Source: a virus
Lineage: Duplodnaviria > Heunggongvirae > Uroviricota > Caudoviricetes
DNA: 40,979 nt
Strand: one strand, 5' to 3'
IMG/VR virus record: IMGVR_UViG_2703718797_000012
Position 1 is the stretch's first letter, and every line of letters starts with the position of its first letter. The position numbers are program-made. Below, piece after piece: positions 9,001 to 12,000 of this stretch.

Positions 9001-12000
9001 TACTCGCAAGAAAGCGAATGCAATTACAAGCAACATCCTGAATAGAATTGCTGTGCGTGGTCAGCGAAAGGTTGCCGACGCGTTAGGGATTAATGAATCG
9101 CAAATTTCGCGATGGAAAGACAGCTTCATCCCAAAAATGGGAATGCTTCTGGCTGTTCTTGAATGGGGTGTTGAAGACGAGGAGTTGGCGGAACTGGCTA
9201 AGAAAGTAGCCAGAATGCTGACAAAAGAAAAAGCCCCGAAGAACGGCGAATTCTTCGAGGCCTGATGTAGAAAGACTGGATCAATCCACAGGAGTAATTA
9301 TGACAAAACGTCGTAAGAAATACCAGGAAAAAGAAGAGATTCGACACCCTGATTCACCTGAGGGATTAGTGGTAGCCGCAGCAAATAACAGGGCGTTCGC
9401 AGAGCGCCTTGTTGGTGTTTACAGACTAGCCAAAGCAGGAGTGAAACATGGGCGTCGTTAAGTTAGCTGATTACAGGCCTCAACTGGAGGTCGTGGAGCA
9501 TCGCGTGGCAGAACTCGAAGATGGCTACACTCGGACTGCAAACACACTGTTAGAAGCCGCCATGCTTTCTGGACTTACTCTACATCAGTTACTGATTGTT
9601 ATGGCTGTGTGGCGCAAGACATACGGTTACAACAAAAAAATAGATTGGATCGGAAACGAACAGTTCGCTGAACTCACTGGCATGGCACCAACCAAATGCT
9701 CTACCGCCAAAAACGAGCTTATCAGAATGGGAGTTCTCATTCAGGTGGGGCGTCAAGTTGGTATGAATACAAACATTTCCGAGTGGAAAACGAAAGTTAA
9801 CGGATTCGGTAAAACATTTACCAATTCGGTAAAACAAACCTTCACCAAATCGGTAAAAAGCAATTTACCGAATCAGTCAAACACAAAAGACAATAAATAC
9901 AAATACCCCCTTACCCCCTAACGGGGGCGGCGATGGGCAGGTTAAACCTGAACGTCGCAAGGCAGAACGAATCGACTACGAATCCTTCCTGAACGCCTAC
10001 AACACCGAAGTCGGTGACAGACTTCCACACGCTGTTGCGGTCAACGAGAAACGCAAACGCCGCCTGAAGAAAATCATCCCGCAACTGAAAACGCCAAACG
10101 TGGACGGTTTCAGAGCGTATGTCAGGGCGTTTGTGCATCAGGCCAAGCCGTTTTACTTCGGAGACAACGACACGGGCTGGACGGCAGATTTTGATTACCT
10201 GCTGAGGGAAGATTCGTTAACGGGAGTTCGGGAAGGGAAGTTTGCAGACAGGGGGATAGCATGAGACAGGATATCGAAGCGAGCGTTATCGGTGGCCTGC
10301 TGATTGGTGGATTAACGCCAACTGCCAGCGACGTTCTGGCAACGCTGGAGCCGGAGGCGTTTTCAATTCCGCTCTACCGGAAAGCCTTCGAGGTTATCCG
10401 CAAGCAGGCGCGAAACAGAAACCTAATCGACGCGCTGATGGTTGCTGAGGAATGCGGAGAGGAGCATTTCACGTCAATCCTGATGACCAGCAAAAACTGC
10501 CCGAGTTCCGCAAACCTGAAGGGATATGCCGGAATGGTCGCGGATAACTATCACCGCCGTCTGGTGCTGGAAATCATGGATGAAATGCGTGAACCAATTC
10601 AGAGCGGAACCATCGACGCATCGAGTCAGGCGATGGATGAACTTGTAAAGCGTCTTTCAGCCATCAGAAAGCCCCGTGACGAGGTTAAACCTGTACGGTT
10701 AGGGGAAATCATAACTGACTACACTGACACGCTTGACAGGCGTCTGAGGAACGGAGAAGAGTCCGATACCCTGAAGACCGGAATCGAAGAACTTGACGCT
10801 ATCACCGGAGGGATGAACGCGGAAGACCTGGTGATAATCGCCGCTCGTCCTGGTATGGGGAAAACCGAACTGGCGCTGAAGATTGCCGAAGGCGTTGCAA
10901 GCCGCGTTATTCCTGGTTCTGACGTCCGGCGCGGAGTGTTGATTTTTTCGATGGAAATGAGCGCATTGCAGATTGCAGAGCGGAGCATTGCCAACGCCGG
11001 GAGGATGTCGGTTAGCGTGCTGCGAAATCCTGCATCGATGGATGACGAAGGCTGGGCGCGTGTTGCTAACGGCATGAGTCAGCTTGCAGATTTGGATGTA
11101 TGGGTAGTCGATGCCTCGCGGTTATCGGTCGAAGAAATACGCTCAATCGCAGAACGGCATAAACAGGAAAATCCAAACCTGTCACTAATCATGGCGGATT
11201 ATCTTGGCCTGATTGAGAAGCCGAAAGCAGACCGTAACGACCTCGCAATTGCTCACATCTCAGGAAGCCTTAAGGCGATGGCGAAAGACCTGAAAACGCC
11301 TGTTATCTCCCTGAGTCAGCTTTCGCGCGATGTTGAGAAGCGACCAAACAAACGCCCGACAAACGCAGATTTGCGTGATTCAGGAAGCATTGAACAGGAC
11401 GCAGACTCAATCATCATGCTCTATCGGGAAGCGGTATATGACGAGAACAGTAGCGCCGCGCCATTTGCTGAAATCATCGTGACGAAAAACCGTTTTGGCT
11501 CGCTTGGTACGGTTTACCAGCGATTCTGCAACGGACACTTTGTTGCATGTGACCAAGACGAAGCCAGACAGATTTGCACAGCATCAAATGCACCTGCTGC
11601 GCGTGGCAGACGATATGCACAAGGGGCTGACGTATGACCATCTACATCACTGAGCTAATAACAGGCCTGCTGGTAATCGCAGGCCTTTTTATTTGGGGGA
11701 GAGGGAAGTCATGAAAAAACTAACCTTTGAAATTCGATCTCCAGCACATCAGCAAAACGCTATTCACGCAGTACAGCAAATTCTTCCAGACCCAACCAAA
11801 CCAATCGTAGTAACCATTCAGGAACGCAACCGCAGCTTAGACCAAAACCGAAAGCTTTGGGCTTGCCTTGGTGACGTCTCTCGTCAGGTTGAATGGCATG
11901 GTCGCTGGCTGGATGCAGAAAGCTGGAAGTGTGTGTTTACCGCAGCATTAAAGCAGCAGGACGTTGTTCCTAACCTTGCCGGGAATGGCTTTGTGGTAAT

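Follow-up and report, generated by a model that had tools for sequence, protein, structure and literature searches.

A recurrent 14-bp deletion most likely accounts for the split O-like replication initiator gene of a CUS-3-like Escherichia coli K1 prophage

The replication initiator gene of a P22-like, CUS-3-like prophage of E. coli K1 is split between two reading frames. We attribute this to a genuine 14-bp deletion, most likely produced by slipped-strand mispairing between the tandem units ACAAAAGACAATAT and ACAAAAGACAATAA, which would have broken the initiator and left the prophage replication-defective (we put the probability of this reading at about 0.85). All coordinates refer to the window, meaning the whole stretch of DNA analyzed here (40,979 nt). 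Similarity to phage genomes begins near position 1433, beyond a cscB gene for a sucrose or oligosaccharide MFS transporter (1..993). An endosialidase tailspike with a P22 head-binding domain is encoded at 35756..38701, and the right end of the window holds neuO and IntS. The structural module seems complete according to the ORF inventory, and a general view of the prophage revealed no obvious decay beyond the initiator.

The truncated O-like initiator ORF (9448..9921, plus strand) starts at the ATG at 9448 and stops, as initially annotated, at the TAA at 9919..9921. Its 157 codons specify the DNA-binding domain followed by an altered linker tail that ends in NTKDNKYKYPLTP. The product matches the full Pfam profile PF04492, Phage_rep_O (residues 19-113, profile positions 1-95 of 95, E 1.2e-36), as well as phrog_2365, phrog_277 and phrog_345, described as 'replication initiation O-like'. 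The coding sequence of the initiator C-terminal domain is stranded in the +1 frame (9920..10264, plus strand), where it matches positions 185-295 of the 297 of phrog_345 (E 2.4e-57). Because the N-terminal part matches PF04492 and the out-of-frame part matches phrog_345, we are dealing with a real gene that is truly split and not with a chance pair of ORFs, and the description of this locus as an O-like initiator gene divided by a frameshift is thereby supported. The two domains are present in one polypeptide in relatives, a feature that is absent in the window.

The properties first reported for the +1 frame are also borne out by the sequence: it is open from 9857 to 10264, contains no Met, and ends in an ATGA overlap onto the start of the next gene. 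A TAA at 9854..9856 precedes it, and its stop codon is the TGA at 10262..10264. The first ATG, GTG or TTG in this frame is the GTG at 10100, from which only 54 aa could be made; with no ATG available and no Shine-Dalgarno motif at this GTG, separate expression of the C-terminal domain was ruled out. The next gene encodes a DnaB-type replicative helicase of 458 aa (10261..11637, plus strand; Pfam DnaB_C, E 9.2e-78, and DnaB, E 1.6e-13), and its ATG at 10261 shares the ATGA with the initiator-frame stop. Through this ATGA the helicase is normally coupled translationally to the initiator, and the coupling is lost in the window; a Shine-Dalgarno-like motif belonging to the helicase gene itself, AGGGGGA, is found at 10249-10255. 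No further lesions were found in the C-terminal remnant or in the helicase gene, which fits a recent event but would also be predicted if the gene remained in use.

The initial annotation located a single-base frameshift in a C-tract at 9905..9918 and considered a homopolymer sequencing error, a genuine inactivating mutation or a slippage-prone site. The tract, TACCCCCTTACCCCC, really begins one base further left and spans 9904..9918, and it is true that removal of one C fuses the two frames into an 816-nt ORF of 271 aa. However, alignment with related intact genes showed that the tract is unchanged and that 14 bp are missing upstream of it. The two C-tracts TACCCCCT (9904..9919, plus strand) are wild-type sequence and are the same in intact relatives: TACCCCCTTACCCCCTAACGGGGG is shared by the window and the intact O genes of HK446, phage 2851 and E. 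coli EC556, and its counterpart in BTP1 carries one A-to-C substitution with no change in length. Since intact initiators of 273-277 aa have the same tract, the lesion does not lie in it. The sole length difference near the frame break is a 14-bp unit located about 10-35 nt upstream of the C-tract. Intact alleles read AAAC-ACAAAAGACAATAT-ACAAAAGACAATAA-ATAC, whereas the window reads AAAC-ACAAAAGACAATAA-ATAC. The lesion is thus exactly one unit, ACAAAAGACAATAT, of a tandem direct repeat found in functional alleles, and the surviving unit at 9883..9896 constitutes the deletion scar, with a breakpoint that can be placed anywhere inside the unit. As 14 bases are 2 modulo 3, the frame changes with this loss. 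Slipped-strand mispairing, the presumed cause, has a textbook substrate in direct repeats arranged in tandem within AT-rich DNA.

Several comparisons identify the undeleted form of this allele. In-silico re-insertion of ACAAAAGACAATAT at 9883 produced a 276-aa ORF identical to an intact protein (P0016) that occurs on at least 1000 public contigs. A viral contig (L015) aligned to window positions 8645..11551 (2.9 kb) with 0 mismatches and a single 14-nt gap; it is the window plus 14 bp, and an undeleted parent therefore exists. The intact allele of E. coli EC556 (831 bp; WP_021563804.1, 276 aa) is likewise the same as the window around the lesion apart from the 14 bp. A megablast search of GenBank phages returned 181 records with this module, and the O gene is annotated as a single ORF in HK446 (822 bp), phage 2851 (822 bp) and BTP1 (834 bp). 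When WP_021563804.1, BTP1 o (SIU02706.1), HK446 gp044 and HK97 gp54 were compared with the window, the DNA around the lesion was identical or nearly so, and the iterons, C-tracts, palindrome and ATGA coupling were shared; they differ from the window in having two 14-bp copies and one continuous ORF.

The lost unit belonged to a replication origin embedded in the gene. A repeat search identified four iterons of the internally palindromic 17-mer TTTACCnAAtTCGGTAAA (9797..9880), positioned at 9797-9813, 9817-9833, 9841-9857 and 9864-9880 with spacings of 20, 24 and 23 nt, in the layout of the lambda origin within gene O (PMC6022878). An internally symmetric iteron array inside a gene is characteristic of lambdoid origins. 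The tandem 14-bp repeat is located in the AT-rich segment just after the fourth iteron, which measures 39 bp in every intact allele examined; in the window a remnant of 25 bp (9881..9905, 80% A+T) is left. To the right of this segment lies an imperfect palindrome of 14+14 nt (9930..9958).

The deleted allele is not confined to a single record. The exact 157-aa truncated product was found on 148 contigs from NCBI, IMG, ENA and Logan (253 blocks; the longest contig measures 5.18 Mb), and the same prophage neighborhood was present in all 24 of the carrier contigs that were read. One metagenome viral contig is 100% identical to window positions 7382..17239. A junction-specific scan of IMG/VR recovered three contigs with the single-copy form, while a gapped scan of the same database returned more than 120 contigs, with two copies in all but one among the matches listed. 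The single-copy form was found neither among the matches listed from the 154 phage records of GenBank that contain this origin module nor among the E. coli complete genomes listed, and a metagenome scan for the deletion junction gave 0 matches. All four matches in a scan of GTDB species representatives (Trabulsiella, Erwinia, Serratia and a MAG) were two-copy, a result that is no guide to frequency. We also looked for compensated alleles, in which the deletion would be accompanied by one fewer C; the IMG/VR junction scan gave the same three contigs, all of them uncompensated. APEC E19035, the nearest relative at the level of the whole prophage among complete E. coli genomes, has a different replication module and offered no comparison. 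The GenBank phage, E. coli and IMG/VR results suggest that the single-copy allele is rare among propagated phages. Its persistence on hundreds of contigs may be due to clonal hitch-hiking, to positive selection or to a function that has been retained.

The same deletion also occurs in another host. Two of the three single-copy contigs from IMG/VR (L060 and L131) carry Salmonella BTP1-type alleles that are about 89% identical to the window, and their truncated initiators end in the same KYK[Y/S]PLTP before the stop. The corresponding products were found on 501 and 15 contigs, complete chromosomes being among the Salmonella assemblies. These deleted alleles sit in BTP1-like prophages beside a BstA gene. 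When the indel was removed from consideration, the haplotype of the window equalled that of the intact contig L015, the haplotype of L060 equalled that of the intact contigs L111 and L054, and the haplotype of L131 and L135-138 was 2 substitutions away from the intact contig L071 over about 800 nt. Three haplotype backgrounds thus match or nearly match intact alleles, indicating that the same 14 bp was lost at least twice and probably three times. The apparently independent loss in Salmonella BTP1-like prophages leads us to infer that the 14-bp tandem repeat is a mutational hot spot.

We propose that mispairing between the two tandem 14-bp units led to the loss of one of them. The loss has two direct effects. 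The resulting +1 frame shift brings translation to a stop at the TAA at 9919 after 157 residues, comprising the origin-binding domain and a scrambled linker, and the C-terminal domain, which lacks a start codon, is left untranslated; by analogy with the lambda C-terminal domain, we infer that the missing part recruits the helicase. The same event reduces the AT-rich segment beside iteron 4 to 25 bp, against 39 bp in intact alleles. The trans-acting initiator would therefore be lost and, by the lambda analogy, the cis-acting origin probably with it, in which case no DNA amplification would be expected after induction. On the precedents of lambda and Gifsy-2, the prophage is probably replication-defective, and it would persist in E. 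coli K1 as a passively replicated, 'anchored' CUS-3-like element. The immunity genes, the endosialidase tailspike and neuO are still carried by the prophage.

Both effects have counterparts in lambda, where the origin likewise lies inside the initiator gene, with four iterons followed by an AT-rich segment, and where the N-terminal domain of O binds the origin, as would the PF04492 domain of the window. In lambda, short deletions within the AT-rich segment form a classic group of replication-defective mutants, and truncation near residue 160 inactivates O (PMC6022878). The ori95 and ori96 mutations are deletions of 12 and 15 bp in the High-AT region of ori-lambda that were obtained as survivors of replicative killing, although the O proteins they encode remain able to complement O amber mutants in trans; Oam317, which leaves 160 N-terminal residues, is counted among the O amber mutants (PMC6022878). 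These lambda ori deletions are in frame and leave a working protein, whereas the 14 bp lost from the window also causes a frameshift. The systems differ further in the partner gene, which is P in lambda but in the window, as in P22 and HK97, specifies a helicase of the DnaB type, and in the iterons and the C-terminal sequence, which in the window belong to the HK97 gp54/BTP1 o type. A natural parallel is found in Gifsy-2 of S. Typhimurium ST313 strain D23580, in which a 71-bp mid-gene deletion made O a pseudogene, which the authors put forward as the explanation for the absence of viable phage (Owen et al., 2017; PMC5322425). As in the window, a frameshifting deletion in the middle of a lambdoid O gene has left a prophage that is otherwise complete with a truncated initiator and has become fixed in a bacterial lineage. 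However, the Gifsy-2 deletion concerns another prophage and another O allele and its recurrence was not reported (PMC5322425), while the lesion in the window is exactly one tandem-repeat unit and has arisen more than once.

Of the three explanations initially offered, the evidence favors the genuine inactivating mutation. A sequencing or assembly artefact, in which an extra C in the homopolymer or a collapsed repeat would conceal a continuous gene, has in its favor that removing one C does fuse the frames and that C5 runs are classic sites of indel errors. Nevertheless, it can be regarded as effectively excluded: intact genes have this very C-tract as their wild-type sequence, the 14-bp difference is far below any read or k-mer length, so that the repeat would not collapse in assembly, and many other records contain correctly assembled two-copy alleles. 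Moreover, the identical truncated product comes from several sources, and independent Salmonella assemblies, complete chromosomes included, bear this scar too. With a wild-type C-tract and a widespread deletion, reads containing one fewer C are not to be expected. A reversible contingency switch, in which the 14-bp unit would toggle between one and two copies and so turn replication off and on in the manner of the heptanucleotide tract of neuO, would be compatible with the independent recurrence of the deletion, which points to an unstable site, and with the fact that this prophage has, in neuO, a genuine phase switch based on repeats. We consider it highly improbable: alleles had either one copy or two, and three copies were found at none of 126 scanned loci; once just one unit is left, slippage has no tandem template from which to restore the second exactly; and the deleted alleles appear as whole lineages (148 and 501 contigs) and are not mixed with intact ones within lineages.

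Alternatively, the gene may be leaky or recoded, with a +1 slip at UAC-CCC-C (9907-9910) or CCC-UAA-C (9916-9922) yielding a 271-aa initiator and a phage that is still competent. The +1 frameshift site of prfB (RF2) reads CUU UGA C and is accompanied by an upstream Shine-Dalgarno-like stimulator. After the deletion, the zero frame of the window reads UAC CCC CUU ACC CCC UAA C, and it shares with prfB a slippery P-site codon immediately preceding a stop codon in frame, with C as the next base. Peptidyl-tRNA-Pro can re-pair at +1 on both CCC-C and CCC-UAA, and either slip would join the frames within a poorly conserved linker (KYKYP/LPPNGGG or PLTP/NGGG, the slash marking the junction), giving a 271-aa product whose linker is 5 residues shorter and which differs from the intact protein only there. 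CC[C/U]-[C/U] motifs are particularly prone to +1 slippage, with up to about 1% frameshifting in E. coli (PMC4519876). Such a reading is also favored by the intact C-terminal remnant and by a structured RNA element 3′ of the stop codon (predicted folding energy -28.9 kcal/mol, z -2.76); the sequence CCCCC-TAAC-GGGGG (9914-9927) forms a small putative hairpin with the stop codon in its loop. On the other hand, the upstream sequence AAAUACCCCCUUACC differs from prfB in having no purine-rich Shine-Dalgarno-like stimulator, the slippery site was created secondarily by the deletion, and the split is not conserved, as by far most homologues encode the initiator in one ORF and, within IMG/VR, only the three contigs are split. 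About 1% of the normal amount of initiator is unlikely to suffice, and full-length protein would still meet an origin that is 14 bp short, a situation comparable to ori95 and ori96 (PMC6022878). The allele is also absent among the matches listed from isolated-phage records. Low-level ribosomal slippage to +1 at CCC-C or CCC-UAA is possible from the sequence, but we think it unlikely that the gene is functionally rescued in this way.

A genuine deletion that disables replication represents a known kind of prophage decay and no new mechanism; the modest addition made here is the recurrence of the deletion at a hot spot. One practical consequence concerns annotation, since re-annotating or 'repairing' the gene by deleting a C would create a protein that nature does not encode; correct repair means putting the 14 bp back. 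It is predicted that the CUS-3-like K1 prophage and a widespread scar-bearing BTP1-like prophage of Salmonella are locked in the chromosome. If this is true, it bears on the stability of neuO-mediated capsule O-acetylation and on the spread of these prophages. The hot spot lies in a common lambdoid origin module and could also provide genome surveys with a simple sequence marker of replication-defective prophages. More speculatively, and with considerable doubt on our part, the 14-bp repeat might be a natural 'kill-switch' hot spot that has been selected repeatedly, in which one slip disables both initiator and origin and the conversion genes are kept without the cost of induction, perhaps with a trickle of initiator from +1 slippage at CCC-C or CCC-UAA. 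The conversion genes in question are neuO in K1 E. coli and BstA and gtr in BTP1-like prophages of Salmonella. If such selection did operate, loss of the repeat unit would constitute a recurrent and predictable route of prophage domestication instead of random decay.

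At its left border the window carries the 3′ part of cscB (1..993), with similarity to phage genomes setting in near position 1433, and at its right border it carries a gene for an IntS-type integrase of 385 aa (39822..40979). The integrase start codon coincides exactly with the end of the window, which places any attachment site in a tRNA gene immediately beyond the window. Two phage-borne tRNA genes, tRNA-Asn(GTT) at 15316-15390 and tRNA-Thr(TGT) at 15396-15471, are separated by 5 bases, with the nin/late-regulator region on one side of the pair and the lysis genes on the other.

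A repeat search of the window located a heptanucleotide, AAGACTC, repeated 11 times without mismatch (38860 to 38936) inside neuO (38855-39583, ATG at 38855), the K1 capsule O-acetyltransferase gene of CUS-3-type prophages. Because this copy number is not a multiple of three, the frame opened by the ATG reaches a stop after 45 codons and the body of the enzyme lies in another frame. By its sequence and the repeat biology described previously (PMC3046976), neuO is in the phase-OFF register here. Within the virion-gene block, the hexanucleotide CAGAGC is repeated perfectly 9.7 times (24917-24974) at the 5′ end of a 203-aa ORF (24911..25522), where this simple-sequence repeat is in frame.

Immediately upstream of the replication initiator gene, and overlapping its start by 14 nt, is a 53-aa ORF (9300-9461) that is conserved beside this initiator allele and annotated as hypothetical (WP_000166961.1). 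Its counterpart in phage HK446 is HK97 gp53-like, and a Pfam search of the ORF returned no match.

The same initiator allele is found on pEM03-18-08_2 (NZ_CP063485.1, 301-1132), a 39-kb circular "plasmid" that looks like a phage genome. There the gene is annotated as "frameshifted" and measures 832 bp, against 831 bp when intact; this one-base excess is a lesion distinct from the 14-bp deletion in the origin.

That 14-bp deletion is shared by BTP1-like prophages in Salmonella assemblies (L135-L138; e.g., LK931502.1 331193-337669), in which a BstA gene adjoins the repressor. In a public protein collection, the truncated initiator product of these prophages was found on 501 contigs, in 707 blocks. 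Given this abundance, some widely sequenced lineage of Salmonella probably harbours a BTP1-like prophage that is replication-defective.
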